Below are positions 13,969 through 33,105 of a DNA stretch of 64,000 nucleotides, piece after piece. The stretch comes from Vicinamibacterales bacterium. GTDB taxonomy: Bacteria; Acidobacteriota; Vicinamibacteria; Vicinamibacterales; JAMQPK01. Every line of letters begins with the position of its first letter. Position 1 is the stretch's first letter. The notes beneath the pieces were generated by a model. The model searched no databases and was not told the DNA's origin. It saw only the letters and a list, made by a program, of their open reading frames with translations. Both the position numbers and the translations under genes were made by a program. The DNA lies in NCBI GenBank assembly GCA_963821395.1, contig CAWGDY010000027.1, forward strand, positions 9,407 through 73,406. The letters are read 5' to 3'.

Positions 13969-14142
13969 CGGACAGGTCCTCAATTGATTGGGGGAGGCGG
14001 ACTATGGCCGCGGCTGCGCGGACGCGCAACTATTTGTGAAGGCACCATTGGATGTCCACGAAACCGGTCGATGGCGCGCATCGCACGCATCGCGCGCATG
14101 ACGCGCGTAGCGGAAGGACGGAAATTTAGGGGAGTTGACTGA

Positions 14143-14397
14143 CTACAGAAGGCCGAGGGCTCTTACGTAGCGGCGCGCTTCGCGGACGGGAATTCGAAAC
14201 ACGCGCTTGCGGCCCCGCCCGACGGGAACGGCGCGCAAGTATCCGTTGCAGATTTCCTTGCGGACGAACGTCGAGCTCATCCCGATCATGCCGGCGAGCT
14301 CGGCGGTGGTCAGCGGCGGGCCGGTCTTCTCGACCAGATCCTTCAGCCGCTGACTGACATCGGGTTGCCGGCGGGCGTGACCGTCCTGTCGCATCAA
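14143..14397 (-). CDS. small helix-turn-helix DNA-binding protein (excisionase/MerR-like HTH family)
   Basis: 84 aa. The HTH segment is PLTTAELAGMIGMSSTFVRKEICNGYLRAVPVGRGRKRVFRIPVREARRYV, typical of excisionase-family HTH domains. No recombinase gene is nearby. Confidence 0.65.
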   Translation of the reverse strand: MMRQDGHARRQPDVSQRLKDLVEKTGPPLTTAELAGMIGMSSTFVRKEICNGYLRAVPVGRGRKRVFRIPVREARRYVRALGLL

Positions 14398-14541
14398 GGC
14401 GTTTACAGGCAGTGCAGGATCGCTGCCGCCGGGACGTCTTCATTTCCGCTGATTTCAGGAGGGTTCGAATGGGGAGGTTCGCAAAGTCTGCTTCCAGGCA
14501 GACTTTGCGCTTCCCCGGGATGGGTCTACGGGCGGGCGCCT

Positions 14542-15810
14542 TTACTTCTTTGGGGCCAGCATCTTCGTGACACGGCCGACACTCGTGTCGCCGGCATACA
14601 GGTTGTTCTGCTTGTCGAACACCCAGTAGCTGGCTTCGATGAACTGGCCGTGCCCGATGCCCATGCCGTTGCCGATCGCGCCAAGCACTTTACCGTTCCG
14701 ATCGAGCTTCAGGAACTGCCCGTCCTGCCCGCTCGCCATCCAGGGCTGGCCTTGAGGATCGAATTTCAACGCGCACACGAGATTTCTCGTCTGGATCGTT
14801 TTGATGAATTTTCCATCGCCGCTGTAGATGACGATGCGATAGTCCTCGCGATCGCCGATCCACACATCGCCGTTCGTTGGATCGACCGCCAGCCCGTGCG
14901 CGGAATTGAATTTGCCCATGCCCACTTCGTTGCCGTACCACTGATTCTTGAACTTGCCGTTCTTGTCGAGATGAACGATGCGCGACGCGCCGATGTTGTT
15001 GGCCGCGTCGTTCGAATCGGTGTCGTTCGGACTTTCGTTGCCGTGCCCCTCCGCGATGTAGACATCGCCGTTCGGCGCGAACGCCACCATCACCGGTTCC
15101 CAGAGCAGCCGTTGTCCCTTGGCCTCGTCCCAGTCACCTCGACGTCCGGTCTCGCCGATCTTGAGAAGCAGCTTGCCGTCAGGGCCGATCTTCATCACGG
15201 TCGCGCTGCCCGCGGCCGTGATCCAGACGTTGTCTTCGGGGTCGACGGCCATGCCGTGCGCCTTCGTCTGGTACCCGATCACATCGGGTGCGACCTGATG
15301 GATGAGCTTGAAGTTCGGATCGAATTTGAAGAGCTGTGGCTTGCCGACGTCCGCGCGCTGGAACACCCAGAGGTTGCCCTTCGAATCGAGCGCGACAGAC
15401 GGCACGCCGCCAAAACCGGGAGGCAGCACGACCGGGTAGGTGAACGTGTACCCCATCGTCTGCTTCCACTGCACGCGCTGCATCTGTCCGCGCGGGAAGC
15501 CGCCGCGCCGGCCGCACACTGGCGACTGGCGGCATGGCGGCACCTGGACGACCGGCGAGTTCTGAACCTCGCCGTTGGGCGCCGCGCCGCGGCCAGGTCC
15601 GCCGCTCCGCGGGGGCACCGTGACGTTGCCTTTCTCATCGACGATCGTCCGTCCGGTCGGGTCGGGGAACGAGGCCTGCAGGAACCAGGCGGGCGAGCCG
15701 TCGGCGGCCGGACCTTCGATTGGCGGCTTCGTTTGAGAGAACGTCAGCGTCGTGGCCCACATCACACCCGCAGCCACACAGACGACTCCGGCAACAGCGC
15801 GTCCCTTCAT
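14542..15810 (-). CDS. secreted NHL-repeat six-bladed beta-propeller protein
   Basis: The internal ATG (aa 161 of ORF 14542..16290) has GGAGG upstream and a signal peptide (MKGRAVAGVVCVAAGVMWATTLTFSQ). NHL-like blades repeat: HGMAVDPEDNVWITAAG, PNGDVYIAEGHGN, HGLAVDPTNGDVWIGD, NNLYAGDTSVGRVTKM. Confidence 0.8.
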   Translation of the reverse strand: MKGRAVAGVVCVAAGVMWATTLTFSQTKPPIEGPAADGSPAWFLQASFPDPTGRTIVDEKGNVTVPPRSGGPGRGAAPNGEVQNSPVVQVPPCRQSPVCGRRGGFPRGQMQRVQWKQTMGYTFTYPVVLPPGFGGVPSVALDSKGNLWVFQRADVGKPQLFKFDPNFKLIHQVAPDVIGYQTKAHGMAVDPEDNVWITAAGSATVMKIGPDGKLLLKIGETGRRGDWDEAKGQRLLWEPVMVAFAPNGDVYIAEGHGNESPNDTDSNDAANNIGASRIVHLDKNGKFKNQWYGNEVGMGKFNSAHGLAVDPTNGDVWIGDREDYRIVIYSGDGKFIKTIQTRNLVCALKFDPQGQPWMASGQDGQFLKLDRNGKVLGAIGNGMGIGHGQFIEASYWVFDKQNNLYAGDTSVGRVTKMLAPKK

Positions 15811-15929
15811 TTCAGCCTCCTGCAAAACGTGTTGGTGAGACGAGAAGTGTCGCACAGTTGATCGGCCAGAGTCACTTCCGGCCGTGCTGCCGGGCACGCG
15901 CGGGTGAGGCTTCAGCCGGGCCTGGAAGG

Positions 15930-16298
15930 TTATTGAAGAACGAGCAGGTCTTCGAACGCCAGCGCGCCGTGATACTGAACGCGGTCGCTGGTGAGCGTGG
16001 CCACCTGACAGCGGAGCACGGTGGCCTTCACCCTGTACGGGGCCGTCGGGCTGCCCAACTGCAGTTCGACCCGCATGCCCGGGAACAGCCGGCATTCGGT
16101 CTCGAGCAGCACGCCCCCGGGGCTGACATCGACGATGCGGGCGCTTCGACCGGGCCGCAGGCGACCGGTCGACATGCCGGTCCAGTCCGCGGTCGAGACG
16201 CGGGGAAAGGCTCTTCGTTCGGGAGTTTCGGTGGGTAATGCTTCGGCCACGGAAGTGGCCAAAGATACGACGGCGGCTCTTGGGAGGCAATCCTCCAT
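15930..16298 (-). CDS. stand-alone PilZ-domain protein (putative c-di-GMP receptor)
   Basis: 122 aa from the internal ATG of ORF 15930..16703. It carries both PilZ signatures: RRAFPR (RxxxR) and DVSPGG (D/NxSxxG). Confidence 0.75.
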   Translation of the reverse strand: MEDCLPRAAVVSLATSVAEALPTETPERRAFPRVSTADWTGMSTGRLRPGRSARIVDVSPGGVLLETECRLFPGMRVELQLGSPTAPYRVKATVLRCQVATLTSDRVQYHGALAFEDLLVLQ

Positions 16299-16369
16299 CG
16301 GGCTATGCCGACGGATTAGCCACGAACGGCTGGCCGGGGGAGCGGGCCGTCGCGTGACCGTGTGCTGGC

Positions 16370-16753
16370 CTACGCCGTCGCGATATCGGGACCCGCGGCA
16401 CGCAGGCGACCGAAGCCGGTCAGCTGACGCTTGGGAAGGTGCAGCCGGGCGCTCGCCTCGATCATCGCGAATCTCCCGGCGCCGGCAAACCGGACACGAT
16501 AGTGCCGGACGGTGCCGTGTGACGTATCGGGCATGACGGTCATGCACACGTCGGCTTCGTTCCGGTTGTCGACAAACTCGACGAAATCGATTTCCGGCTT
16601 GATCTCGTCTTCGAGCCAGGCGTCGCAATCCAGAAACACTTTCAGGTCGCGGGAATCGTATTGGCCGGTCATGTCGGCCTCTTGCCGGGCAATGGCGGCC
16701 CACGCCATCAACATGGCCCGCACGGGGGTAGACGTAACGGTGGTCGCAATCAT
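16370..16753 (-). CDS. small acidic hypothetical protein, paralog P1 of a 3-member family
   Basis: Start MIATTVTSTPVRAM, with GGAGAG 5 nt upstream. It is colinear with the ORFs at 21600..21977 and 26198..26539. Confidence 0.7.
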   Translation of the reverse strand: MIATTVTSTPVRAMLMAWAAIARQEADMTGQYDSRDLKVFLDCDAWLEDEIKPEIDFVEFVDNRNEADVCMTVMPDTSHGTVRHYRVRFAGAGRFAMIEASARLHLPKRQLTGFGRLRAAGPDIATA

Positions 16754-16859
16754 GCGCACTCTCCAGTCAGCATCGTTTTCGATGCTCGACAAGTTATAGC
16801 CAACACCGCATGAGGGCTCGATGAAGCAAGATCGTGACCAGCTTCACAAATCCTTCATG
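16754..16859 (-). promoter_or_regulatory. P1 leader hairpin, conserved 37-nt box and upstream CTTCA half-sites
   Basis: Box at 16790-16826 (plus strand): CAAGTTATAGCCAACACCGCATGAGGGCTCGATGAAG. On the coding strand it reads ...GTTGGCTATAACTTG with a -10-like TATAAC. The leader hairpin is AGCATCG-tttt-CGATGCT (16769-16786). The motif CTTCACaAAtcCTTCAT (about 16843-16859) is also conserved upstream of P2. Confidence 0.6.
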
Positions 16860-16974
16860 TTCCCGGCACGCGTTGGCTGCGGGCAGATCGCGACTTCTAA
16901 CGAAGGTGAGCGGGGGACTGCAGTCTATCCGCGGTGTCCGCGGCGTGTCCACGTTCTTTTTCAGTAAGCGGGTC

Positions 16975-17184
16975 TCATCGGAGATACGTGCGGAAGAAGC
17001 CCAGAGCGAAACCCAGAAGGGCGGCGAGCAAGAGCTGATAGTCCATCACTATCACAGTGGCGGCGACGCCGCTGCCCTCGCCGCTCTGCATGTGGAAGGC
17101 GCGGAAGACGCCTATGAGAACCCAGAGGACGATCACGACCGTGGCCGTGATGGCGCCGATGAGAAGGCTCTTGAAAAGCCGCAT
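16975..17184 (-). CDS. small two-helix membrane protein (hypothetical)
   Basis: 69 aa with two hydrophobic helices (LLIGAITATVVIVLWVLIGVF; LLLAALLGFALGFF). No clear SD sequence. Confidence 0.4.
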   Translation of the reverse strand: MRLFKSLLIGAITATVVIVLWVLIGVFRAFHMQSGEGSGVAATVIVMDYQLLLAALLGFALGFFRTYLR

Positions 17185-17273
17185 CGGAAAGCGGGTACTG
17201 TAACCCTGAATCGACGGGGCACGGCAGCCTTTTCATGGCCCCGTTTCGTCTAATTCCCCCGAGGAGGGTCCGC

Positions 17274-19684
17274 ATGAGCGGCATCGTTCAGGACCTGCGG
17301 TACGCGCTTCGCGGTTTGAGAAGAAACCCGGCGTTCACGTCGGTCGCGCTCGTCACCCTGGCGCTCGGCATCGGCGCCAACACGGCGATGTTCAGCGTGC
17401 TGAACGCCGTGCTGCTGAGGCCGCTTCCATATCCGGCTTCCCACGAGCTCGCGATGTTGTGGACGGAGCGGCCGAACCAGAACCTGCGCGAGGGGCGGTC
17501 GGCCTATCACGACGTCGAAGAATGGCGCGCGCGCAGCCGCACGCTGGCAGACGTCGGGGTTTTCGATCCGATGACGGCCAGGCTCACCGCGCCGGGTGAG
17601 CTGGAGCGAATCAGCACACTGAGGCTCTCGCCGAATGTCTTTGCGATCCTCGGCGTGCAGGCGTATCGGGGTCGCGTCTTCTCGACCCAGGAAGCCGACG
17701 AGCGGCGCAGGGTCGCCGTCGTCAGCTATCGATTCTGGCAGTCCCGCCTCGGCGGCGCCGACAACGTCATCGGCTCGACGATCGAGCTCGACGGCCTTCC
17801 GTCCGAAGTGATCGGTATCCTGCCCGCGGATTTCCGGTGGTCCGACTCAGACGTCTGGGAACCGCACACCCTGTTTCCCGACTGGGACGTACGTCGAGGT
17901 GAGCGTGGCGATGCGTCCTGGTTCGTGCTCGCGCGGTTGCGTCCCAACGTGACGATCGAGCAGGCGCAGGGAGAGCTGAGCGGCATCGCACGGGGTCTCG
18001 ACGAGCAGCGGATCGCGTCCGAGCAGGGACGCGGCATCGGCGTCATGCCGCTGAGCCTGCATATCGTCGGACCACGATGGCGGCTGACCCTGTGGATGCT
18101 GACGGGCGCGGTGTTCTTCGTCCTGCTCATCGGCGTGACGAACATCACGAGCCTGTCGCTGGCTCGCAGCACGGGACGCGCGCGCGAGTTCGCGTTGCGC
18201 GCGGCGCTTGGCGCGAGCCGCGGTCGCGTGCTGCGCCAGTTGTTTTCCGAAAGCCTGGTACTTGCCGTCCTTTCCGGACTTGGCCGGTCTCGCCGTTGCC
18301 TGGGTCGCACTTCCGATCATCGTGGCGTTCAAGCCGGCCGATCTCGTCACGCTGGGCGAGGTGCGACTCGACGTAGCCACTCTTGCGTGGACGCTGGGGC
18401 TGTCGATGCTCACCGGTGTGCTCGTGGGCCTCGTTCCCGCCATCACCATGACTCGCTGGAATCTTCAGGCGCCGCTGCACGAATCAGCCCGCGGGACGTC
18501 GGCGGGCGCTTCCGCGCGTCTTACGCGCCGCGCGCTCGTGGTGGCGGAATTCGCGCTGGCGATCGTGCTGCTCGTCGGCGCCGGGTTGCTGACGCGCAGC
18601 CTGATGAACGTGCAGCGCGTCAACCCTGGTTACAGCTCCGAGCGCGTGCTCTCGATGCAGCTCGCGATTCCACCAATCGACGCGACCAATCAGCGGGCTG
18701 ACTACTACCAACAGGTTTTGGATCGGGTCGTCAACACGCGCGGCGTCGAGGGCGCCGGCGTCATCGGCGATCTCTTCATCAATGCGAGCCCGGAACAGAG
18801 CGTGACGGTGGAAGGGAGCGCGCGAGGCGCCGAACGGTTGCGGCTGCGGCGCGACGAGGTGAGCGGCGGCCTGTTCGAAACGCTGCGGATTCCGCTCGTT
18901 CGCGGGCGTGCGTTCTCCTCGGAAGACGGGCCGAACGCTCCCAGGGCGGCGATCGTCAACGAAACGATGGCGCGCCGGCTGTGGCCGGGGCAGGATTCCG
19001 TCGGCAAACGATTCAAGATGGGTGTGACCTCGGCGGATGGTCCCTGGTTCACGGTAGTCGGCGTGGTCGGCGACGTGCGCCGGCAGGGGCTCGAAGAAGA
19101 ACCTGCCGCCCAGATGTTCGAGCCCGTGGCCCAGAATCCATCGCGGCTCGCGACGCTGCTGGTCCGCACCTCTGGCGAGCCCATCGCGATGGCTGCCACG
19201 CTCCGCGCGGCCATTCAGCAGATCGATCGGCGCGGGCTGGTGTACGGAGTGAACACGCTTGGCGCGCGCATCTCGGGATTCCAGGCGGAGCGGCGGTTCC
19301 AGACATGGTTGCTCATGGTGTTCTCGAGCCTCGCACTGCTCCTGGCCGCAATCGGTATCTACGGCGTGGTGCAGTACCTCGATTTCGACGCGCACGCGGG
19401 AAATCGGCGTGCGCATGGCGGTCGGCGCCGATCGTCGCGACATCTTCAAGATGGTGGTGGGGGAAGGGCTGAAGATGAGCCTGACCGGTCTGGCGCTCGG
19501 TCTCGTTGGGGCCCTGTGGCTGGGGCACCTGGGAGCGAGCCTGCTCTTCGGTGTCTCGTGGATGGACCCTGTGACCTACGTAGGCGTCTCGCTGCTTTTG
19601 ACGACGGTAGCGCTCGCCGGCTGCTATTTCCCAGCACGCCGCGCCGCGCGTATCGATCCGCTTGTAGCGCTCAAATACGAATAA
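17274..19684 (+). pseudogene. ADOP-type duplicated MacB/FtsX-like permease, disrupted by two 1-nt insertions
   Basis: Homology to the intact paralog (23792..26197) runs through three frames: ORF 17235..18701, then 18208..19734, then 19259..19684. The frame switches fall near 18279-18283 (cttgGcc) and 19377-19379 (tacCtcg). The N-terminus (LRYALRGLRRNPAFTSVALVTLALGIGANTAMFSV) and C-terminus (RRAARIDPLVALKYE) are family-typical. Confidence 0.8.
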
Positions 19685-19699
19685 ATTGGGTGCGGTGGC

Positions 19700-19717
19700 A
19701 CAGGGCTTCAGCCCTGT
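19700..19717. repeat. REP-like GC-stem tetraloop hairpin
   Basis: ACAGGGC-TTCA-GCCCTGT. Related copies lie at 22820, 22858 and 63773, plus a degenerate copy at 48848. Confidence 0.6.
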
Positions 19718-19718
19718 T

Positions 19719-19771
19719 GAGATTAGGAGACTAAGAGCGATTCTTCTTTCGAGAAGAATTCTCCTAATCTC
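19719..19771. terminator. nested palindrome between convergent genes (putative bidirectional terminator)
   Basis: The outer arms are GAGATTAGGAGA ... TCTCCTAATCTC. The inner hairpin is ATTCTTC-tttcga-GAAGAAT. It lies between the permease stop (19684) and the PhoX-like gene stop (19795). Confidence 0.55.
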
Positions 19772-19794
19772 CTAATCTCTTGTTGAGTCCCTCG

Positions 19795-21189
19795 CTACTT
19801 CGGAATCGTAAATTCGATGGTCCTGTCGTTGCCGCTCGATGGGTGCTGGATGTTCACCCAGCCTCTGCGCTTGTCGGTCGGGTCGAAATACAGGCCGGTG
19901 AATTCCGAGCCGCCTGTCCCGTTCGATGCCCAGCGGCCGATGCCTTCGCCCTGATCGGTCAAATCGCCGTCCTTGTTCAGATCCTTCGCGAACCAGATGT
20001 CGTCGTCGGAGCCGCCATTCCGGTCTTCGATGATGTAGATGTTTCCGTCGTGGTCGATGGCCAGATTGTCCGGGTTGGCCAGCGCCGTGCCCACCGCTGC
20101 GCCCGTGGCGAGATCGATGGTGTTTCGGTTCGCGAACACTGAGATCGTGTTGTTCTTGAGATCGATCCGGTAGACCTCGTGCGTCGTGGTCGTTGTCATG
20201 TAGAGATAGTCGACGCCGCTCAGCGTCTGGATTTGCAGATCCTCCGGGCGCTGGTAATCGGTTCCTTTGAAGGATGGCAGGTTGGTGGTGTTGCGGGCAT
20301 CCACCGACGTGACGCCGTTCGAGTCGGTGATCGTGAGCGCGCCTGGCAGGGGAGCGCCATTCACATCAGTGAACGGAACCCACGTGAAGGCTCCCGTCGC
20401 GTTCGCCACGCTCCCGTCGCCGACGCGCAAGACGAAGGTCTGTCCCGCAGCGAAGTAGTCGGCCTGACCGCCCTTGACCTTGCCGAAGTTGGCCGCCGAC
20501 GTGAACCTGTAGACGTTGCCGCCGTTGAGCTCATCGATGAAGTACATGTTGCCGGGCTTGTCGAACTGAACGCCCTCATGCGACGTGCGCGGGACGACGT
20601 TCCGATGCACGAAGTCGGCGCCCGCATTGCTCAGGCCTGTCACCGGGTTGAGGATGCCCGGGGCTTCGATCGGGTTCTTCAGCTCGAAGAGCCGGCCGTA
20701 GATTTGCGGATGTCCGACGTCGCCGAGGGTCGACCAGGACTCTTCGGCGGTAATCAGCGTTCCCCAAGGCGTCCAGTAACACGCGTCGAACGAGACATAG
20801 CGCCCTGCGGCCGGGCTTTGCCAGATCGTGTCGGTTACACCAGTCTCCAGGTCGTGGCGTTGCACGCCTGAATTGCCCGTCTCGAAGACGGTGAACAGGT
20901 AGCGGCCCTTGTGAGGTCCCGTCTCATTCACGGTGATCATGTCCCACGAACCCGAGTTCGGCTTGTTTGCGGCGAGCTGTGTGGTGCGCTCCGCAATGGA
21001 CTGCTGGTGAAAATCGGGATTGCCGAACGTGATGGGCTCGTCTTCGCTGAGGACGGGGATGGCAGGGGACGTTGAAGCGGTGAGCGGTGTGTAATCCGAG
21101 AATCGTGTGCCATCTGCGACGAGGACCGTTCCCGCAAGCACCAGACCTCCCACGGCGACGAGCCTCGCGCGATGAATCGGCATCTTCAT
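19795..21189 (-). CDS. secreted PhoX/DUF839-like beta-propeller protein
   Basis: Start MKMPIHRARLVAVGGLVLAG (signal peptide, GGAGA upstream). The C-terminal motif NPDNLAIDHDGNIYIIEDRNGG and the overall pattern resemble PhoX-type (DUF839) phosphatases. Assignment is by motif recognition only. Confidence 0.65.
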   Translation of the reverse strand: MKMPIHRARLVAVGGLVLAGTVLVADGTRFSDYTPLTASTSPAIPVLSEDEPITFGNPDFHQQSIAERTTQLAANKPNSGSWDMITVNETGPHKGRYLFTVFETGNSGVQRHDLETGVTDTIWQSPAAGRYVSFDACYWTPWGTLITAEESWSTLGDVGHPQIYGRLFELKNPIEAPGILNPVTGLSNAGADFVHRNVVPRTSHEGVQFDKPGNMYFIDELNGGNVYRFTSAANFGKVKGGQADYFAAGQTFVLRVGDGSVANATGAFTWVPFTDVNGAPLPGALTITDSNGVTSVDARNTTNLPSFKGTDYQRPEDLQIQTLSGVDYLYMTTTTTHEVYRIDLKNNTISVFANRNTIDLATGAAVGTALANPDNLAIDHDGNIYIIEDRNGGSDDDIWFAKDLNKDGDLTDQGEGIGRWASNGTGGSEFTGLYFDPTDKRRGWVNIQHPSSGNDRTIEFTIPK

Positions 21190-21439
21190 ATTCGATTTCT
21201 CCAGTCGCGCCAACAAGGGTTCGTGTGAACGTTGTCCCGCAGGCAGGCGGCTGGCGCGAACCTTCCTGTTCGGGGTACTCGACTCGTGCGCACAAGTCGG
21301 TCGACGAACCTAGTTATAGAAAGCGGATGTTGCGCGAGGGAGAATGGGACATCACGCGCGAGCAAAATTTCAGACGCGGGTTGTGTGGTGAATCCCGACA
21401 CCATGTCTGTGAAGCGACGACCGTGCGACGCAACGATCG

Positions 21440-21475
21440 TTCGGTGCGACAGGTGCGACAGGTGCGACAGGTGCG
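21440..21475 (-). repeat. tandem 9-mer array (CGCACCTGT-type, 4 units) about 250 nt upstream of the PhoX-like gene
   Basis: The plus strand reads ttcggtgcg acaggtgcg acaggtgcg acaggtgcg. Two further units lie at about 21520-21537 (ggatgcgat aggtgcgac). Confidence 0.8.
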
Positions 21476-21599
21476 TTGGGCTTGTCCGCCGGAGCGATGG
21501 GCGCCGTCTGCGCGGCGGCGGATGCGATAGGTGCGACTTACTTGTTGCGGTAGCGCAAGGGCGACGGCAGAGCTGGGGGCTGGCCGTCGCTTGTTGCAG

Positions 21600-21977
21600 T
21601 TACGCCGTCGCCGATGTCATGGCAGTGTGCAGACGAGGGAAGTGCACAACCCGGGGATGCGCCAGATGCACACGCGCGCTCGCCTCGATGAAGGCGAATG
21701 GCCCGGCGCCGACGAACCGCACGAGGTGCTGGCGGCCACCGCGTGAGATATCGGGTCTGACGGTCATGCAGAGGTCTGCCTCTTCGCGGTCATCGACATA
21801 CTCGACGAAGTCTTCATCGGACTTGACGTCGTCCTCGAGCCAGGTCTCGCAGTCGAGGTAGACCTTCAGGCGACGGATGCCGTCCTGGTCGTTCGCGGCG
21901 GCAAACTGCTGTGCAAGCGAGAGCCATCCCTGGACGAGGGCGTGAACGGGAGTGGACGTGGCGTCGGTGGTCAACAT
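21600..21977 (-). CDS. small acidic hypothetical protein, paralog P2
   Basis: 125 aa, MLTTDATSTPVHALVQGWLSLAQQF..., with GGAGAA upstream. It is colinear with P1 and P3. Confidence 0.7.
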   Translation of the reverse strand: MLTTDATSTPVHALVQGWLSLAQQFAAANDQDGIRRLKVYLDCETWLEDDVKSDEDFVEYVDDREEADLCMTVRPDISRGGRQHLVRFVGAGPFAFIEASARVHLAHPRVVHFPRLHTAMTSATA

Positions 21978-22085
21978 GCTCGTTCTCCAATCAGCATCAC
22001 TCGTCGATGCTGGAGCAAGTTATATCCAACGCCACATGAGGACTCGATGAAGCGCGTTGGGGGTGCGCTTCACGAATGCTTCATC
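21978..22085 (-). promoter_or_regulatory. P2 leader hairpin, conserved 37-nt box and upstream CTTCA half-sites
   Basis: Box at 22016-22052: CAAGTTATATCCAACGCCACATGAGGACTCGATGAAG. The leader hairpin is CAGCATC-actcgtc-GATGCTG (21992-22012). CTTCACgAAtgCTTCAT lies at about 22069-22085. An inverted repeat GAAGCGC ... GCGCTTC is visible on the coding strand. Confidence 0.6.
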
Positions 22086-22118
22086 TTTGCGACCCTGTGG
22101 TAAGGTCCTGTTTTCAGG

Positions 22119-22808
22119 ATGAACGACGAGGCGATTCTCAACGATCAGGTTGTGTACTACCGCGCACGCGCGGGCGAGTACGACCAGTGGTTCCTTCGCG
22201 AAGGCCGCTACGATCGCGGCGCCGGACACCGGGCGCAATGGTTTGGCGAGATCGCCACGATACGACGGGCGCTCAGCGAGTCAGTGAAGGATCGGAACGT
22301 GCTCGAGCTGGCGTGTGGCACGGGACTGTGGACCGAGCAGCTCGGACGGGAGAATCGCAGTGTCCTCGCCGTCGATGCTTCCCCCGAAGTCATCGCCATC
22401 AACCGGGACAGGGTGCACGCCGCGCACGTGCGGTACGAGACAGCAGACATCTTTTCCTGGACACCGCCCACGCTGTTCGATGCTGTCTTCTTTGCGTTCT
22501 GGCTCTCGCACGTCCCTGCGAGCCGGTTCGAGAGCTTCTGGCAGACCGTCAAAGCATCGGTCGAGCCTGGCGGGACGGTGTTCTTTGTCGACAGCCTGCT
22601 CGAGCAAACCTCGACCGCGACCGATCACGCACCAATAGACGACTCGGGTGTCGTCCGCCGGAAGCTGAACGACGGCCGCGAGTTCGAGATCGTGAAAATG
22701 TTTTACCAACCCGAAGAACTGGAACGGCGCCTCTCGCAACTGGGCTGGCAGGCCAGAGTGCAGTCGAGCGGGAAGTTCTTTCTGTTCGGCGAGTGCACGC
22801 GCGCGTAG
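22119..22808 (+). CDS. class I SAM-dependent methyltransferase
   Basis: 229 aa. Motif I is VLELACGTGLWTEQL, followed by the typical D-loop (AVDASPEVI) and motif IV region (FDAVFFAFWLSHV). Confidence 0.85.
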   Translation: MNDEAILNDQVVYYRARAGEYDQWFLREGRYDRGAGHRAQWFGEIATIRRALSESVKDRNVLELACGTGLWTEQLGRENRSVLAVDASPEVIAINRDRVHAAHVRYETADIFSWTPPTLFDAVFFAFWLSHVPASRFESFWQTVKASVEPGGTVFFVDSLLEQTSTATDHAPIDDSGVVRRKLNDGREFEIVKMFYQPEELERRLSQLGWQARVQSSGKFFLFGECTRA

Positions 22809-22819
22809 ACAGCGATCTG

Positions 22820-22877
22820 GCAGGACTGAAGTCCTGCACCACCGGCGAGAAGCTCGCGGCGGGACTAAAGTCCCGCC
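22820..22877. repeat. two REP-like tetraloop hairpins downstream of the methyltransferase
   Basis: GCAGGAC-TGAA-GTCCTGC (22820-22837) and GGCGGGAC-TAAA-GTCCCGCC (22858-22877). Confidence 0.65.
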
Positions 22878-22900
22878 CTACCGGGGATCGCCCAAGACTA

Positions 22901-22945
22901 CCGCACCCATGCACCTGTCGCACCTAACGCACCCATCGCACCTAT
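22901..22945 (+). repeat. tandem 9-mer array (5 units, CGCACCYNN) immediately upstream of the EamA gene
   Basis: ccgcaccca tgcacctgt cgcacctaa cgcacccat cgcacctat. The last unit overlaps a TATAAA (22943-22948) that ends 8 nt before the ATG at 22957. Confidence 0.8.
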
Positions 22946-22956
22946 AAACTCTCTTC

Positions 22957-23787
22957 ATGTCTCTCGGCATCCTTCTCGCCCTCGTCTCCGCCATGGTGTG
23001 GGGCAGTGGCGACTTTGTCGGCGGCGCCGCGACCAGGCGCAGCCACCAGTTTCAGGTCCTGGCCCTCTCGGCGCTCTCGGGCATCGTGCTGTTGACGATG
23101 CTCGCGTGGATCTTCGAGCCGCTTCCATCGCGTGCGAACGTGGCGTGGGCGGCCGCAGCCGGTCTGGTGGGCGCGGTCGGCATCGCCTCGCTCTATCACG
23201 GCCTGGCTATCGGCGGCGCGGCGATGGTGGCGCCGGTCGCGGCCGTCGTGACGGCGGCGATTCCCGCTGTTTACACGGCCTTTGCCGTTGCGCCGCCGAG
23301 TGCATGGCAGTTGGCCGGGTTTCTCGCGGCGGTCGCCGGCATCTGGCTCGTCACTCGCCAGCCGCAGACGGCCGAAGCACAGTCGCGCAAGGGCGTCAGC
23401 CAAGCCGTTGCCGCAGGAATCGGGTTCGGCGCTTTCCTGATTCTGATCGCACAGGTCGACCGCACGCTCGTGTTCGGCCCACTGGTCGTCGCGCGGACGG
23501 TCATGCTGGCCATGGGCCTTGTGCTGATGATCGTGCGCGGCATCAGCTTTCCCGGGCTGACGTCGAATCCGCTCGCGCTCGTAGCCGGTTTGCTCGACGC
23601 CGGCGGCAACATCTTCTTCGTGCTGGCGCGTCAGCATACGCGGCTCGACGTCGCCGCGGTGCTGTCGTCCCTGTATCCGGTCGCCACCGTCGTGCTGGCC
23701 CGCATCGTCTGGCGAGAGCCTGTCGCGCCGCAGCAATGGGCGGGCGTTGGAATGTGCCTGCTGGCAGTGGCCTTGATGGCAGAATGA
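22957..23787 (+). CDS. EamA/DMT-family transporter
   Basis: 276 aa with about 10 hydrophobic helices. The N-terminus is EamA-type (ILLALVSAMVWGSGDFVGGAATRR). Confidence 0.85.
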   Translation: MSLGILLALVSAMVWGSGDFVGGAATRRSHQFQVLALSALSGIVLLTMLAWIFEPLPSRANVAWAAAAGLVGAVGIASLYHGLAIGGAAMVAPVAAVVTAAIPAVYTAFAVAPPSAWQLAGFLAAVAGIWLVTRQPQTAEAQSRKGVSQAVAAGIGFGAFLILIAQVDRTLVFGPLVVARTVMLAMGLVLMIVRGISFPGLTSNPLALVAGLLDAGGNIFFVLARQHTRLDVAAVLSSLYPVATVVLARIVWREPVAPQQWAGVGMCLLAVALMAE

Positions 23788-23791
23788 GTCG

Positions 23792-26197
23792 GTGATGTAC
23801 GCGCTGCGAAGCTTGATGAAGTCGCCCGGTTTCACCCTGCTGACGGTGCTGATCCTCGCCATCGGCATCGCAGGAACGGCGGTGATGGTCGCGCTCGTCC
23901 AGGGCGTGCTCGTCAGGCCGCTGCCGGTACGCGACGAGGAACGCCTCATCGTTGCGTGGAAAGAGCTGCAGTCGTCGGGCTACGCCCACTATTCGTTCGG
24001 AGATGACGGAATAGAAGAGGCCGCGCGATCGAGCCGGCTGCTCGAAAGTGTGGCGGGCGTGGGAACCAACGGCGTGTCGCGCTCCGCGGTCGACGTCGAC
24101 GGCACCACCGACTATGTGAACGATGCGCTGGTGACCGGAGGGTTCTTCGAGGTCCTTGGTGTGAAGCCCATCCTTGGCCGGACGCTCACCCGTGCCGACG
24201 ATGCGGATGGCGCCGAGCGTGTGGTCGTCATCAGCTACGCGCTGTGGCAGCGTCGCTATCACGGATCGCGAGATGTCATCGGCCGTCGCTTCTGGGGCAA
24301 AGAGGGCTTCCCTATTGTCGGCGTCATGCCGCCCGACCTCGATTACCCGAGAGGAGTGGACATCTGGCGGACCACGAAATCCGTGGGAGAAGGGAAGTTC
24401 AGAGACGCCGCGCAGATGGAAGTCGATCTGATCGGAAGACTTCGGCCGGGCGTCACGAAGGAACAGGCCGCTGGGGAGCTCGCGGTGTTGATACGGCAGC
24501 TCGAATCGCAGGCGCCGCCTGACGCGCCTCGCGGACTCCTTCCCGTCGTTCGTCCTTTCAAAGACGAAGTCGTCGGGAACGTTCGGTTGACGATGCTGAC
24601 CCTCTCGGCAGCGGTTCTGCTCATGCTGCTCGTCGCGAGCGCGAATGCGGCGAACCTGCTGCTGATGCGGAACGAAGCACGCAGAACGGATCTCGCCGTG
24701 CGGATGGCGCTGGGGGCGGGACGGGGAAGGATTGTGGCGCAGGTGCTGGCCGAGAGCCTGGTGCTGGCGATTGCCGCCGGCGTTGCGGGGCTGGCCCTGA
24801 CGTGGTGGTCGCTTCAGCCCCTCGTGCGGCTCGTTCCGGACGGGCTGCCGCGAGTCGAGTCGGTCCGCGTCGACTGGACGGTCTGCCTGATTGCGATTGG
24901 GATCGCCCTCGCGACCGCGGCGATCTCCGGGCTGGCGCCGGCCCTGTCGATCAGCTCCGATCTCGTTTCGCACTTGAGAAGCGCGGGCCGTGGTGTGGCG
25001 GGATCGGCGTCGCGAGCTCTTCGTAGATCCTTTGTTGTCGTGCAGGTGGCCCTGGCGGTCACGATCGTTGCGGCGGCGGGATTGCTGACCCGCACGGTCT
25101 TGAACCTGCAGGCGATCGACACTGGCCTGGCCGCGGATCGACTGGTCCTGGTCGAGCTCAGTGTGCCTTCGGCGGACCACGCCAATCGGGTGCGTCACTC
25201 TCAGTTCCTGGATACCGTCGTGCGGCAGCTCGAGGAACTTCCTTTTGTCGAGGCGGCGACGCCCATCAACATGCCGCCATTTTCGGGGACCGTCGGATGG
25301 TCCGTGCCGAGAATCGCGGCCGAAGGGCAGACCGCCGACGAGGCCGCGGCGAATCCTTCGACGAACTTCGAGTCAATCTACCCGAACTACTTCCGGACGT
25401 TCGGCGCGAGGATAGCCGCCGGACGCCCCTTCACCGACGCCGATGGGGAAGGCGCGCAGAAGGTGGCGATCGTCAGCGAGGACGTGGCCCGCCGCACGTG
25501 GCCTGGCCAGGATCCCATCGGCAAGCGCATGAAGCTCGGTGGCCCGGCCTCGGAAGGAGACTGGCTCACCGTGGTTGGCGTGGCAGCTCCCACGCGGTAC
25601 CGCGCGCTGACCCAACCCAACGCCATGTTGTATCTCCCGGCGGCGCAATTTCTCGTCACCGCCCAGATGCTTGCGATACGCACCGCGGCGCCGCTCGATC
25701 AGGTGATGTCGGTCGCGCGCACGCACGTGCGCGCCGCCAATCCGCGCGCACACGTCATGCGCGTGAGCTCGTTCGCATCGCTGATGGACGCTCCGCTGGC
25801 GGCCCCGAAATTCAACGCGTTTCTTCTGAATCTTTTCGGGACCGTCGCACTGCTGCTATCGGCCATAGGCCTTTACGCCGTGATGAGCACCTACGTTCGC
25901 CAGCGGGATCGCGATATCGCCGTCCGCAGGGCGCTGGGTGCTACGACCTCTGATGTACAGCGGCTCGTGTTCGGGGAAGCAGTCTGGCTGGCCGGCATCG
26001 GTGCGGCCATCGGGCTGGGCGGGGCATTTAGTGCAGCACGCCTCGTGCAGGGCATGCTCTACGGCATTGATTCGCTGGATCCCGTGACGATGTTTGGTGC
26101 GGCAGGCGTGTTGATTGCCGCGTCCATGCTCGCCTCGTACTTACCGGTTCGTCGTGCGACCCGCATCGATCCGCTCGTGGCGCTGCGCTGCGAGTGA
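23792..26197 (+). CDS. ADOP-type duplicated MacB/FtsX-like ABC permease (intact)
   Basis: 801 aa. The N-terminus is LRSLMKSPGFTLLTVLILAIGIAGTAVMVALVQGVLVRPLP. It has two FtsX-like halves, each followed by a periplasmic domain. The C-terminus is VRRATRIDPLVALRCE. It starts 4 nt after the EamA stop. Confidence 0.9.
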   Translation: MMYALRSLMKSPGFTLLTVLILAIGIAGTAVMVALVQGVLVRPLPVRDEERLIVAWKELQSSGYAHYSFGDDGIEEAARSSRLLESVAGVGTNGVSRSAVDVDGTTDYVNDALVTGGFFEVLGVKPILGRTLTRADDADGAERVVVISYALWQRRYHGSRDVIGRRFWGKEGFPIVGVMPPDLDYPRGVDIWRTTKSVGEGKFRDAAQMEVDLIGRLRPGVTKEQAAGELAVLIRQLESQAPPDAPRGLLPVVRPFKDEVVGNVRLTMLTLSAAVLLMLLVASANAANLLLMRNEARRTDLAVRMALGAGRGRIVAQVLAESLVLAIAAGVAGLALTWWSLQPLVRLVPDGLPRVESVRVDWTVCLIAIGIALATAAISGLAPALSISSDLVSHLRSAGRGVAGSASRALRRSFVVVQVALAVTIVAAAGLLTRTVLNLQAIDTGLAADRLVLVELSVPSADHANRVRHSQFLDTVVRQLEELPFVEAATPINMPPFSGTVGWSVPRIAAEGQTADEAAANPSTNFESIYPNYFRTFGARIAAGRPFTDADGEGAQKVAIVSEDVARRTWPGQDPIGKRMKLGGPASEGDWLTVVGVAAPTRYRALTQPNAMLYLPAAQFLVTAQMLAIRTAAPLDQVMSVARTHVRAANPRAHVMRVSSFASLMDAPLAAPKFNAFLLNLFGTVALLLSAIGLYAVMSTYVRQRDRDIAVRRALGATTSDVQRLVFGEAVWLAGIGAAIGLGGAFSAARLVQGMLYGIDSLDPVTMFGAAGVLIAASMLASYLPVRRATRIDPLVALRCE

Positions 26198-26539
26198 TCA
26201 GAACGCGAACCCGGCGTTCGGCAGATGCAGGCTCGCGCTGGCCTCGATGCACGCGAACGAGCCGGAGCCGATGAACCGCACCAGGTGCTGGCGACCGGCG
26301 CCGTGCGAGCCGTCGCGCTCGACCTGAATGCAGACGTCGGCGTCCTCGCGGTCGTCGACGCACTGAACGAAGTCGTCTTCAGGGGCGATCGCGTCCCCGA
26401 GTCCGTTTTCGCAGTCGAGAAACACCTTCAGACGGCGGGTGCCTTCCTCGTCATTCGCGGTCGCAAACTGCTGTGCCAGTGCGAGCCATCCCTGGACGAG
26501 GGCCCGAACGGGAGTGGACGTAACGTCAGTGGTCATCAT
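26198..26539 (-). CDS. small acidic hypothetical protein, paralog P3
   Basis: 113 aa from the internal ATG (MMTTDVTSTPVRALVQGWLALAQQF) of ORF 26198..26770. Its stop codon abuts the ADOP stop codon with zero spacing. Confidence 0.7.
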   Translation of the reverse strand: MMTTDVTSTPVRALVQGWLALAQQFATANDEEGTRRLKVFLDCENGLGDAIAPEDDFVQCVDDREDADVCIQVERDGSHGAGRQHLVRFIGSGSFACIEASASLHLPNAGFAF

Positions 26540-26580
26540 GCGGCAAGTTATACCGAACCCCGCATGAGGGCTCGATGAAG
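26540..26580 (-). promoter_or_regulatory. P3 conserved 37-nt box lying 4 nt from the start codon
   Basis: Box at 26544-26580: CAAGTTATACCGAACCCCGCATGAGGGCTCGATGAAG. On the coding strand it reads TATAAC-ttgccgc-ATG, which predicts a leaderless or near-leaderless transcript. The P1/P2 leader hairpin is absent. Confidence 0.55.
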
Positions 26581-26808
26581 AGCCCCAGAGAGTCATCTCC
26601 GGTGATGACTCTGTATCCCTGATGCAGCGGTGTTGTATCCGCACCGCAACGAGCGATACGCGCCGTGAATATCCGAGGCGGCGCAGACAAATCCGACAAT
26701 AGTTCTGAAGCAGGCAGAATTTCTTCCGAAAGCCCGTCCGGTCAATAGGGGATACATACAGTTTTCGCACACAGCGGATCAGGCATGGTGGTTGCTGAAT
26801 GAGACGCC

Positions 26809-29800
26809 ATGCTGACCCCGCTGGGCTTGTTGGGCCCGTCGTCTACCCGTGCGTCTCGATGCTCTTTTATCGGACGGCTGGCTTTCATCATTCAAATTAT
26901 TCTCGGCCCGTTCCTGTGGTCGGACGGCGCCGTCGTCCGCGCGCAGGAGACTTGGACGGTGCTTCCCTCGCTGCCGACGTCGGACGATACGTCGACGACG
27001 GTGCAGTCGAAAGCCTGGTTCCATGGGCACACGTGGTGGGCGGTGCTGTCGAGCAGCACGCCGACGAGCGGGTCGTGGCTGTACAGGCTCGAGTCCAACA
27101 ACACGTGGACGCAGGTGCTGAAGGTATCGTCGATGAAGGGCAAGGCCGACACCAAAGCCAGCGGCGATCTCACTCATATTTTGATCGTCTCCAGCGACGC
27201 GCAGATCGTCACGATTGAGTACGTCCCCGCGCTCCGTACGTATCGACTCTGGCCCGCAAATCCGACTCCGGTGCCGGTGTTCGTCGGGGAAACGGGCTCG
27301 CTCGAAGTGGATTCCACCGGACGACTCTGGCTTGCCACAGATCATTTCAACTGGGTGTACGTCTACTACGCCGACTATCCGTTTTCGACGTTCAACGGTC
27401 CGGTCATCCTGACCGAGGACACCAATCTCGGCGACGTCAATCAAATCGTGGCGTTCCCCAACCACACGATCGGCGTCTTCTGGGGCAACGGCATTTTCGA
27501 GCGGTGGGGATTCAGAGTTCACGTGGACGGCACGGACCCAAACGTCTGGCTCGATGACGAAATGCCGGCAGCGGCGGGCCATGAGAACCTCAACATGGCC
27601 GACGACCACATCAACCTGGCGCTCCGCGCAGACGGCACGTTGTACGCGGCTGTGAAGCCGAAGAACTCATCGAGCGTCGTCCCGCCGTTGTACCTGCTCG
27701 TCCGGCGACCGCAGCCCGGATTGCCCGGCGGTGTCTGGGACAACACGCTCTATCCGGTCGATCCCGTCGCCGCAGGGAGCGAGTCGGGCAGCGGCCGGCG
27801 TCCGCAGGTCGTGCTCGACGAAGACACGAACACATTGCGCGTCTTCTACCACAACTCCTCTGGCGCCGTGTTCTTCCGGGAGTCTGACTCGACCAACATC
27901 AACTTCGGGCCACGCCAGCAGGTGCTGACAAGCGGCTACGAGTACGTCTCCAGCACGAAAGATGCCTGGGCGGGCAGGCTCGTGGTACTTACGACGAACT
28001 CGGGGACAACAGGCGTGCTCATCACGACCAACCCCGGTCTGGTGGGTTACTGGAAGATGGACGATGGGGCGGGCGTGCAGGCACGCGACCTGTCGGGTTG
28101 GGGGAACGACGCGACGCTGTCGGGCACTTCCACATGGACGGCGGGCATCAAAGGGTTCGCACTGAATCTCGACGGTTCCAGCACCTATGGGTCCGTATCC
28201 GATCAGGAAGGACTCGATGCCACGACTGGTCTCACGCTGAGCGCGTGGATCAAGCCGCAGGCGCAGGGCGCGCAGGACGTCATCAGCCGGGCCACGATCG
28301 GAGCGGCCGATGGATACAGCCTGTATCTGAATGCCACGAATGCCACGACCAATCCAGGCAAGGTGATCTTCCAGTTGAACGAAGCGACGTCGGGCAATAC
28401 ATTCCGCGTCAATTCGGACACGAGCTATCCATCCAACGGCAGCACGTGGATGCACGTGGCGGCAACCTACGACGGCACCGCGATGCGCATGTACATCAAC
28501 GGCGTCGAAGAAGCGTCGAGCCTCGGCCCGCCGTCGATTGTCGCCAATGCGATCGCCGTCGGCATCGGTGCACAGGCCAACGGCAGCCGCAAGTTCCGCG
28601 GACACATGGACGAAGTGCGGATCTACCGGCACGCGCTGACGGCCGCGGAAATCACGGATCTGGCAAGCGTGCCTCATGCAGATCTGAGCATCACGAAGAC
28701 CGATGGTGTTTCGAACGTCACCGTGGGACAGCAGACGACGTACACCATTCAGGCCATGAACTCCGGCCCGGAAGATGTGCTGGCGATCGTCTCCGATCCA
28801 CTGCCGAGCCGACTGACGGGAGCGACGTGGACGTGCGTCGGCACAAATGGTGGCTCGTGTACGGCAAACGGCACGGGCAGCATCAACGACGTGGTGGACC
28901 TTCCGGTGGGCGGCAGCGTCTGGTACACACTGCAAGCGAGTGTGACACCCGGCTCGAGCACGCCGCTTCTCAACACCGCAACGGTTTCGCCCAACGGCAT
29001 CGATGCGGCGCCGGGCAACAACAGCGCGACCGACACCGACACCATTCTGCAGCCTGTTTCTCCGGTGATTACGACGCAGCCTGCCAGCGTGTCGGTGACG
29101 GCACCGTCTGCGGCCACGTTCTCGGTCGTGGCGAGCGGGGCCTCGCCGATGACATATCAGTGGCGGCGAAACGGCAGCGTCATATCGGGCGCCACCAGCT
29201 CGAGCTACACGATCAATCCCACCGCGGTTGCCCTCAGCGGCTCCTCGTTCACGGTCACGGTCTCGAACGCCGGTGGCAGCGCGACGAGCACCGCGGCCAT
29301 CCTGACGGTGAACGCGGCACCGGTTCCGCCCAGTATCACCACGCAGCCGGCCAGCGCGTTCGCCATCGAGCCGGGCGGCGCGACGTTCTCTGTCGTCGCC
29401 ACCGGCACGTCGCCGCTGAGTTACCAGTGGCGGCGCAACGGCACCGCGATTCCCGGAGCGACCAGCGCCAGCTACACGCTCAACTCGACATCAGGGGCCG
29501 ACAGCGGCGCCTCGTTCACCGTGGTGGTGTCCAACAGCGTTGGCTCGGCCACCAGCTCGGCTGCAATTCTCACCGTCTTCGGCAGTGGCAGCGCGACGCT
29601 GCTCGAGGCCCATTTCGACAGCGGCCCCGACGGATTCACGTACGCAGACGATCTGTTCCGCGGCACGAACCAGGCGCAATACGCGAGTGGTGCCCACATC
29701 GCCAGCGGCGGCTATACGGGCGGCGCCCTCCGAGTTCAGGTCGGCGGCGTCAACAGCCAGAACGCTCAGAACATGTCTGGTGGATGGCAGACCAGCTTCA

Positions 29801-32811: not shown

Positions 32812-32876
32812 AGTCCCGGAGTCTGGAAGAGTCCGGAGAGTCGGAAGAGTCGGGGAGAGGGGAGAGTCGAGGAGTC
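32811..32876 (+). repeat. purine-rich array with 7 GAGTC words
   Basis: GAGTC occurs at 32811, 32819, 32829, 32838, 32847, 32864 and 32872. The array starts inside the stop codon of the 2000-aa gene. Confidence 0.85.
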
Positions 32877-32881
32877 GACCT

Positions 32882-33105
32882 ATCCTGGAAGGCTGTCGGG
32901 TTGACGTCGATGCAGCGCAAATCCGTACAAGGCGGCCGACATGATGCGCCTGACCGCGCGAGAAGCCCGTTGGGCCTCGAGCGAGGTTGACTGAGCGACG
33001 TCGGGGACCTCGCGTCGAGCGGTCGACGTCGGCCTCGCAGCGCGGTCCGGCCCCGGAGCTCCGGATTTGCGAGGCAGCGACGTCAACCCGACAGCCTTCC
33101 AGGAT
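32882..33105. repeat. ~224-nt imperfect palindromic intergenic element, copy A
   Basis: The terminal 28-nt arms are perfectly inverted: ATCCTGGAAGGCTGTCGGGTTGACGTCG ... CGACGTCAACCCGACAGCCTTCCAGGAT. The interior is homologous to 63551-63750 (for example GGCGGCCGAC..GCCTGACCG.GCGAGAAGCC...GGGCCTCGAGCGAGG...CCTCGCGTCGAGCGGTCG...CGGCCTCGCAGC.CG.GTCCGGCCCCGGAGCT.CGGATT). Confidence 0.8.

Follow-up and report, generated by a model that had tools for sequence, protein, structure and literature searches.

Three small acidic paralogs of a soil acidobacterium and their relationship to the N-terminal domain of a DUF481-like barrel family

In a 64-kb stretch of a Vicinamibacterales bacterium, a soil acidobacterium, three genes for small acidic proteins (P1, P2 and P3) lie on the minus strand among genes for very large surface proteins and permeases. 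The whole stretch is referred to as the window, and all coordinates are window positions. The initial annotation treated the three as a triplicated family that could not be assigned to anything known, each copy being preceded by its own control box, and proposed a regulatory, chaperone or immunity-type role. What are these proteins, where do they come from, how are they expressed and what might they do? The comparisons described below show that P1–P3 are real, conserved genes, and they support well that the proteins are stand-alone derivatives of the periplasmic N-terminal domain (N-domain, ∼100 amino acids (aa)) of an abundant family of DUF481-like barrel proteins. Their function can be addressed with more reserve.

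Conservation and family assignment of P1–P3

The coding sequences occupy positions 16370..16753 (P1, 127 aa, ending in ...IATA), 21600..21977 (P2, 125 aa, ending in ...SATA) and 26198..26539 (P3, 113 aa, ending in ...GFAF) of the minus strand. They are colinear paralogs, as originally described, with pairwise identities spanning 53–66%: in a MAFFT alignment P1 is 54% identical to P2 and 53% to P3, and the identity of P2 and P3 is 63–66%. Invariant residues fill 49 columns of this alignment and cover the blocks TSTPV, LKV[FY]LDC, DFV, AD[VL]C and VRF.G.G.FA.IEASA..HL; they include two cysteines, C43 and C70 in P1 numbering. The isoelectric points are 5.55 (P1), 5.20 (P2) and 4.41 (P3), so that the shared blocks, the cysteine pair and the acidic charge noted by eye all hold. 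A six-frame search with a hidden Markov model (HMM) found exactly three copies, P1–P3, in the window. The exact 113-aa sequence of P3 is absent from a collection of 15 billion proteins in which P1 and P2 of the same 79.6-kb contig are present; as P3 lacks a Shine-Dalgarno sequence, gene callers probably chose a different start there, in an open reading frame (ORF) reaching back to a GTG at 26770.

A word-indexed search of 5.8 billion proteins returned 40 clusters, all unnamed and none with Pfam domains. The closest genomes carrying P-type genes are metagenome-assembled genomes (MAGs) of Vicinamibacterales: all three paralogs are present in a close relative (L003), and one P copy each was found in the more distant relatives L001 and L004, within the 20 kb fetched. 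The ratio of nonsynonymous to synonymous substitution rates (dN/dS), determined by the Nei-Gojobori method (NG86), was below one in all nine comparisons. It was 0.16 for P1 (98% identical to its L003 ortholog) and 0.52 for P2 against the L003 orthologs, 0.34–0.38 between the paralogs and 0.24–0.31 among more distant orthologs. The initial annotation had allowed that these might not be genes at all; the ratios (0.16–0.52) are not near one, and conserved orthologs exist. In a neighbour-joining tree the P1-type sequences form a clade of their own, and the P2-type and P3-type sequences cluster with the single-copy P0019. Several metagenome orthologs were obtained for each paralog type (for P3, these are P0017, P0022, P0023, P0033 and a gene of L014); the duplications are therefore old and all three copies have been retained. 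There is thus good support for regarding P1–P3 as three paralogs of long standing, all retained, of a small-protein family that occurs in MAGs of Vicinamibacterales and in related contigs from metagenomes.

Matches to existing models were not obtained for P1–P3 in Pfam, NCBIfam or PADLOC (PP1_inhibitor at an expect value (E) of 0.07 being noise), and a Pfam scan of 26 family members gave nothing recurrent. Pfam DUF481 (PF04338), whose model spans the barrel only, matched neither P1–P3 nor the 26 scanned members. Flavodoxin and eL22, which came up as PDB relatives of the short-family profile, were rejected (E 0.05 or worse, noise from acidic segments). An exhaustive profile search of 1.84 billion representatives gave 849 matches at E≤1e-3 and 60 at E≤1e-10, with matches at E 1e-9 to 1e-13. 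Many of the matches are proteins of ∼420 aa that consist of a signal peptide, a segment homologous to the P proteins (LRVFLDC..C..DYVR.EV.FVDYVRDR.DADVHVLVT..G.G.EY..F.G.G.F.G) and a long region ending in ...GSIFNNVVNPRF (the NPRF end). The alignments of the short and the long family match over 88 columns (hhalign probability 99.2%, E 7e-20), and the long-family HMM finds P1–P3 at E 1e-14 to 1e-16. P1–P3 correspond to about the first quarter of a long-family protein. The claim that no family can be assigned consequently stands for Pfam, NCBIfam, PADLOC, PDB and Foldseek, where P1–P3 have no match, and falls with respect to the N-domain of the long family, to which they are homologous.

The long family comprises more than 5,400 clusters, labelled, where they carry any label, DUF481 or hypothetical. 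Neither Pfam nor NCBIfam has a model for its N-domain, and the PDB offers no counterpart; a PDB sequence search with the long-family profile returned nothing, and a literature search found no paper with DUF481, or an N-terminal domain on DUF481, as the subject of its title or abstract. Structural models were compared by the order of their elements. The AlphaFold2 (AF2) model of P2 has a mean predicted local distance difference test score (pLDDT) of 78.7, with values of 84–94 across residues 10–105, and is composed of a helix (9–28), a strand (37–42), a helix (45–51), strands 58–61, 69–76, 83–90 and 98–104 and a disordered tail. The model of the long-family protein P0106 is weak overall (pLDDT 62.8, N-domain 76–86); it has an E-H-E-E-E-E core, a helix at 115–134 and about 12 strands. 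The two models agree in the core, which is beta-alpha-beta-beta-beta-beta. With P0106 as query, Foldseek returned nothing but outer-membrane barrels (OmpG, autotransporter beta-domains, FapF, NanC), the lowest E being 3e-4. An origin of the short family from the long one is in keeping with the intermediate forms P0058 and P0059, short proteins in which two long-family features, the C-x2-C pair and the ADIH motif, are still present.

Two proteins of unusual composition were noted among the matches of the profile search. P0139 (551 aa) has two tandem P-like domains ahead of the barrel. P0175 (1026 aa) combines a signal peptide, a P-like domain, hydrophobic segments, a region resembling F5/8-type C and a DUF2334 (polysaccharide-deacetylase-like) domain; it may be a chimeric assembly, or a real fusion hinting at a link with polysaccharides.

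That the P proteins cover only about the first quarter of a long-family protein could also mean that they are decaying, functionless N-terminal remnants of broken outer-membrane protein genes, and a frameshifted permease gene nearby (see below) shows that decay or assembly errors do occur in this region. This reading, which we find hardly credible, is effectively refuted by the conservation data. The dN/dS ratio is below one in nine of nine comparisons, there are orthologs of each of the three paralog types, and different clades agree in protein length and in the C-terminal motif. Constraint acts on the N-terminal helix, the long genes have nothing like the dedicated and strongly conserved predicted promoter of the P genes, and no barrel-like sequence follows any copy. 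Taken together, the identity, origin and cassette structure of P1–P3 as stand-alone derivatives of the N-domain are in our judgement very likely to be correct.

The N-terminal segment and the probable location of the proteins

The N-terminal segment of the short proteins, T-x-x-P-V-R-A-L-x-x-x-W-x-x-L-A, occupies the position of the signal peptide in the long family, and the properties of the two were compared. The mean hydrophobicity is 0.46 for the short-family segment and 0.68 for the long-family signal peptides (p 3e-6), and the hydrophobic moment is 0.31 versus 0.15 (p 2e-6). In the short family the N-terminal helix is about as conserved as the core (0.67 vs 0.71), whereas in the long family the signal peptides are far less conserved than the N-domain (0.34 vs 0.67). 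In the AF2 model of P2 the helix has a pLDDT of ∼90, like the rest of the domain. These properties lead us to infer that Sec does not export the short proteins and that a structural amphipathic helix has taken the place of the former signal peptide; as judged from sequence and model, P1–P3 are probably cytoplasmic.

Since all other occurrences of the domain are periplasmic, the main alternative is that P1–P3 are exported, as soluble periplasmic paralogs with an atypical, weakly hydrophobic Sec signal; they would then bind the partner or ligand of the barrel-tethered domain, for example as a competitor or shuttle. The homologous domain is indeed periplasmic in every long relative, being preceded by a signal peptide in each long-family protein examined, and the hhalign alignment pairs the short 'AAA/ATA-ND' segment with the signal-peptidase region of the long family. 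The short N-terminus also has the layout of a signal peptide (an arginine, a moderately hydrophobic stretch, A-x-A), the n-h-c-like order being clearest in P1, where R12 is followed by AMLMAWAAIA, and the adjoining genes encode exported or envelope proteins. These points count against a cytoplasmic location. Set against them, the segment is less hydrophobic and more amphipathic than the genuine signal peptides of the superfamily, it shows core-like conservation and no indels, which sets it apart from real signal peptides, and it is modelled together with the domain at high confidence (pLDDT ∼90). The n-region of P2 carries no positive charge, and the C-x2-4-C of the periplasmic relatives, a probable disulfide pair, has been lost. 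We regard export of P1–P3 as unlikely on balance and a cytoplasmic location as the more probable.

The upstream element, predicted promoter and leaders

The initial annotation had assigned a conserved control box to each copy, and this was borne out: the 37-nucleotide (nt) box CTTCATCGAGCCCTCATGCGGnGTTGGnTATAACTTG occurs at exactly three sites in the window at ≤3 mismatches (16790–16826, 22016–22052 and 26544–26580), with 0 expected from 100 shuffles. The box is part of an element of ∼70 nt with the invariant core CGAGyCyTCATGCG. In the direction of transcription, the element comprises ATGAAGgATTnGTGAAGC, a variable spacer of 13–14 nt and GCTTCATCGAGyCyTCATGCGnnnTnnGnTATAAC, followed by ∼7 nt; in P1 and P2 a hairpin (AGCATCG-loop-CGATGCT), GGAG, 7 nt and the ATG come next. 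For P1 (16793..16858, minus strand) the TGAAG half-sites lie at 16857–16853 and 16846–16842, and after a variable spacer of 13 nt come the inverted CTTCA (16826–16822), the invariant core CGAGCCCTCATGCGG, a G at −14 and the −10-like TATAAC (16798–16793). The P1 leader (16754..16792, minus strand) has a predicted 5'-terminal hairpin, AGCATCG-AAAA-CGATGCT, at 16786–16769, and GGAG at 16764–16761, 7 nt before the ATG. The element of P2 (22019..22084, minus strand) has the same architecture with TATAAC at 22024–22019, and its leader (21978..22018, minus strand) contains the hairpin at 22011–21993 and GGAG at 21988–21985. The pairing of the leader hairpin is kept (RNAalifold), with one pair varying as GC/GU/AU and two others showing wobble-compatible single changes.

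The 5' region of P3 (26540..26580, minus strand) is different. TATAAC (26552–26547) is followed by 7 nt (TTGCCGC) and the ATG at 26539, and the region contains neither a hairpin nor a Shine-Dalgarno sequence. Directly upstream of the P3 box lies a perfect palindrome specific for the P3 type, CAGAGTCATC-ACCGGA-GATGACTCTG (26586..26613, minus strand), which is also present in L014. Relative to L014, about 40 nt have been deleted in the window P3, with the loss of both upstream TGAAG half-sites, and the palindrome stands there instead. The regulation of P3 may therefore differ from that of P1 and P2.

The element is closely tied to the P family. The box was present in eight of the eight instances that had been found via the protein alone (three in the window, two in L003 and one each in L001, L004 and L005), and it is kept in L005 although the protein is only 38% identical to P2, so that conservation is higher in the element than in the coding sequence. 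When 241 million metagenome records were scanned with a 17-base core, 93 raw matches were obtained, six of which had the extended box and TATAAC. A P-family gene comes after each of these six, and the remaining 87 lack both the extended box and a P gene. In all, the extended box stands ahead of P genes in 14 of 14 cases, and neither the window nor the metagenome scan has it before a gene of another type. No box was found at long-family genes. The extended box occurring only before P genes, it is private to the P family and travels with the gene.

Several features suggest that GnTATAAC is an extended −10 promoter motif. TATAAC lies exactly 7 nt before an ATG without Shine-Dalgarno sequence in the P3-type genes of the window, L014 and L051, which all keep this gap; in P1 and P2 an equal distance reaches the first base of the hairpin; and the G two bases 5' of the hexamer is invariant. 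Transcription is accordingly predicted to start about 7 nt after TATAAC, that is, at the first hairpin base in P1 and P2 and at the A of the ATG in P3, the mRNA of which would be leaderless. With respect to such a start, the TGAAG, TGAAG and CTTCA half-sites are at about −69, −58 and −38, and together with the invariant core they form a candidate operator for a factor.

Other readings of the region were tried and rejected. A sigma-54 promoter (TGG-N8-TTGC) would need one more base of spacing, and L001, L004 and L005 do not keep the TTGC. Upstream mini-ORFs (ATG-AAG-..-TGA and ATG-CGG-...-TAA) show changes at codon positions 1 and 2 with the third invariant, and the first ATG is missing in L082. 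A divergent ORF of 107 aa in L001, starting on the reverse of GCTTCAT, has a counterpart upstream of P2 that stops in the same frame after 18 codons. As a further possibility, TGAAGC-N17-CATCGA was considered as an ECF-like or sigma-32-like site. Across 14000–33000 no Rfam covariance model matched at E≤1, and no intrinsic terminators were found after the P genes.

Gene neighbourhood and possible function

The neighbours of the three genes are those given in the initial annotation. P1 heads a minus-strand string in which a PilZ-domain gene (15930..16298; PF07238, 31.4 bits) begins 71 nt downstream, followed by genes for an exported NHL/SGL beta-propeller (14542..15837; 431 aa with a signal peptide), a protein with a weak match to HTH_17 (14143–14397) and, at the end, a giant protein of 3971 aa (2068..13983). 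Thirteen Ig_7 stretches, three LamG domains and PKD domains were recognized in this giant, a predicted surface protein, and a calcineurin-like phosphoesterase (metallophosphatase) is embedded in it. Divergent from P1 is an ADOP permease gene (17235..19734, plus strand) that is frameshifted near 18280. Its two ORFs, 17235–18701 and 18208–19734, overlap in different frames and the TIGR03434 match ends at residue 349 of the first; L013 has an intact ortholog (802 aa), and in L001 the ADOP gene beside P0019 is split as well (528 + 326 aa). The window gene is either a pseudogene or the product of an assembly indel error. Upstream of P1, an ORF of 69 aa (16975–17184, minus strand) encodes two very hydrophobic segments (MRLFKSLLIGAITATVVIVLWVLIGVF...LLLAALLGFALGFF); its only Pfam match is weak (DUF5518, E 0.047), and a genuine small protein of the membrane may be encoded here.

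Downstream of P2, after a gap of 383 nt, lies a PhoX-like gene (19795..21216, minus strand). Also downstream of P2, the 9-mer GGTGCGACA is repeated in tandem (∼3.5 copies and one degenerate copy, at 21443–21479 and 21521–21538), and an inverted array (22906–22942) lies 1.4 kb away; the arrays bracket P2 and an ORF at 22076–22927. The 9-mer matches number 5, compared with 0.1 expected, and the arrays could be repetitive extragenic palindromic (REP)-like or the remnant of a mobile element. P3 is convergent with a second ADOP permease gene (23792..26197, plus strand; TIGR03434, 751 bits vs a cut-off of 622), the stop codons abutting, and divergent from the gene for a 2000-aa Ig/LamG/DUF11 protein (26809..32811, plus strand). 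The latter is a predicted surface protein with LamG, DUF11 and Ig repeats, encoded by DNA repeats of 267 nt (8 copies). Orthologous giants flank P genes in the L001 and P0030 contigs.

ADOP permeases (with or without PadR), giant LamG/Ig proteins and the exported NHL propeller recur beside P genes within the Vicinamibacterales, in line with the linkage to giants and permeases noted initially; this linkage does not extend to the most divergent members, P0039 and P0040. No neighbour is as persistent as the NHL propeller, whose gene follows the P gene on the same strand in the window (P1), in L001, in two P0030 contigs and in L013 and L082. The layout around P3 (ADOP convergent, giant divergent) recurs in L014, and that around P1 (ADOP divergent; P, PilZ, NHL) in L013. 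The common theme of the neighbours is envelope or exported products, with no single partner being universal. Long-family genes adjoin peptidase S9 and ABC-transporter genes, which is uninformative.

Small, acidic, multi-copy proteins beside very large exported proteins recall immunity proteins, and P1–P3 might be antidotes to toxin-like activities of the adjacent Ig/LamG giants, as the initial annotation had considered. A toxin domain is hinted at by one Ntox3 match in the 3971-aa protein, of 26.0 bits against a cut-off of 26.9; this sub-threshold match of 30 residues falls inside the Ig-repeat region and not at a C-terminal toxin tip, and no toxin domain in the giants is above threshold. PADLOC gave no match for the P proteins. 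The gene order is also wrong for immunity genes, the P genes being upstream of or divergent from the giants rather than immediately downstream. Each P gene has its own promoter without coupling to a toxin gene, and related P genes occur with no giant nearby. An immunity role is disfavoured by these data and must be considered highly improbable.

The neighbours may alternatively be incidental. P1–P3 would then be condition-specific (e.g. stress-induced) small proteins in the regulon of one alternative sigma factor or transcription factor, and the cassettes would simply have landed in intergenic regions of a variable genomic region. A promoter element that is better conserved than the protein and moves with the gene would fit such a regulon, as would the variation of gene context between clades and a non-canonical promoter at which a sigma-70 scan calls nothing. 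The extended box was found before P genes only (14 of 14, in a scan that demanded a near-exact box), so that no wider regulon is visible. The pairing of P with the NHL propeller recurs in clades as divergent as L082, and the P3 and P1 layouts are each conserved in independent contigs. We consider this possibility decidedly unlikely, somewhat more so than export of the proteins.

The explanation that we prefer is that P1–P3 are co-regulated, probably cytoplasmic, non-enzymatic binding modules linked to envelope or export functions; as a whole, we judge it about evenly balanced between right and wrong. The short proteins have lost the barrel and kept the beta-alpha-beta4 core, with a conserved amphipathic helix at the signal-peptide position, and each P gene forms a self-contained cassette with a private upstream element. 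In this scheme one factor recognizing the shared box would switch on all three genes together. The P proteins would act on or with the adjoining envelope and export genes, most persistently the NHL propeller and also the ADOP permeases and the giants. A non-enzymatic binding module is suggested by the small sheet-plus-helix domain, the acidic surface and the disordered tail with its ATA or FAF end. The tail is variable, and yet it ends in ATA in 25 of the 40 clusters and in FAF (GFAF) in four P3-type clusters. The C-termini of P1 and P2 are encoded at 16370–16381 and 21600–21611. Non-polar C-termini of this kind are typical of tails that are recognized by proteases or PDZ-type binders, and the conserved C-terminus may be a degradation signal or the ligand of a tail-binding protein. 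The functional part of this explanation is offered tentatively, with the greater weight of probability against it. A more specific version combines the change from signal peptide to structural helix, the dedicated leadered/leaderless promoter and the multiplied cassette, and holds that P1–P3 are adaptors or regulators of the production or export of the giants and the NHL propeller; this we regard as speculative and doubtful.

A number of observations weigh against the preferred explanation. The dN/dS values of 0.3–0.5 point to no more than moderate constraint, and the Foldseek search of the P2 model against PDB and BFVD gave no match at E≤1e-3 (best E 0.27). The term 'binding module' is argued from the absence of catalytic features and not from similarity. 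P0039 and P0040, which diverge most, stand ahead of genes for a GT4 glycosyltransferase and an ABC exporter, P0029 lies among hydrolases, and ADOP permeases are multi-copy (two in the window), so that adjacency to them may mean little. At the box, the sigma-70 consensus scan calls nothing and there is no good −35; TATAAC is without the canonical final T, and the promoter reading rests on spacing only.

If the assignment is right, an unannotated domain is common to more than 5,000 predicted outer-membrane protein clusters and to a small stand-alone family, and deserves a family model. The stand-alone form is newly described here; the long superfamily has already been catalogued, though it is uncharacterized. 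P1–P3 would be a natural example of a secreted-protein domain moved between compartments, its signal peptide apparently reused as a structural helix. The ∼70-nt element would represent a compact, strongly conserved promoter/operator in the Acidobacteriota, a phylum whose promoters have, to our knowledge, been little studied. Its natural variants (leadered, leaderless, and one without the upstream half-sites) make it directly testable. Specialists may be interested in the apparent change of a signal peptide into a structural helix, in a promoter/operator conserved more strongly than the gene it precedes, and in the occurrence side by side of leadered and leaderless forms; should the adaptor or regulator role be true, the set would constitute a class of small, envelope-linked regulators not described before. 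In practical terms the importance is limited, the family being restricted to uncultured soil bacteria that are Vicinamibacterales-like.

Leaderless and hairpin-led bacterial mRNAs driven by extended −10 promoters exist, and the P genes can be compared with both. P3 resembles the leaderless type in having GnTATAAC, 7 nt and an ATG without Shine-Dalgarno sequence, and departs from it in the hexamer, which ends in C and not in T. P1 and P2 resemble the hairpin-led type, with the same −10, a stem-loop at the predicted +1 and GGAG. For the upstream 40 nt, with the half-sites and the core, no matching regulator site could be identified.

Among proteins of known structure, the nearest Foldseek neighbours of the P2 model are the TolB N-domain (7mx5_B; TMq 0.44, probability 0.63, E 0.61), the C-terminal domain of LpoB (4q6z; TMq 0.39) and GNA1162 (4hrv; TMq 0.34), which are non-significant and serve as leads only. 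All three are small, mixed alpha/beta, protein-binding periplasmic domains from outer-membrane-associated proteins of the envelope; TM-scores are below 0.5, E values are 0.3–1.6 and there is no sequence similarity.

The closest known relatives are the DUF481-type (PF04338-related) proteins of ∼420 aa that are widespread in metagenomes, with which P1–P3 share the motifs VFLDC, FV.YV, ADV and F.G.G.F. These proteins have a C-terminal barrel of ∼250 aa, whereas P1–P3 (113–127 aa) are without it and nothing barrel-like lies 3' of any copy. The invariant C-x2-4-C that follows strand 1 in the long proteins (C46, C49) is not found as a pair in P1–P3; the short family keeps only the first of these cysteines and has a second one of its own, C70, in strand 3. 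The long genes are without the private promoter box that, together with the conserved ATA/FAF C-terminus, marks the short family. The helix that flanks the core is N-terminal to it in the short proteins (residues 9–28) and C-terminal to it in the long protein P0106 (residues 115–134).

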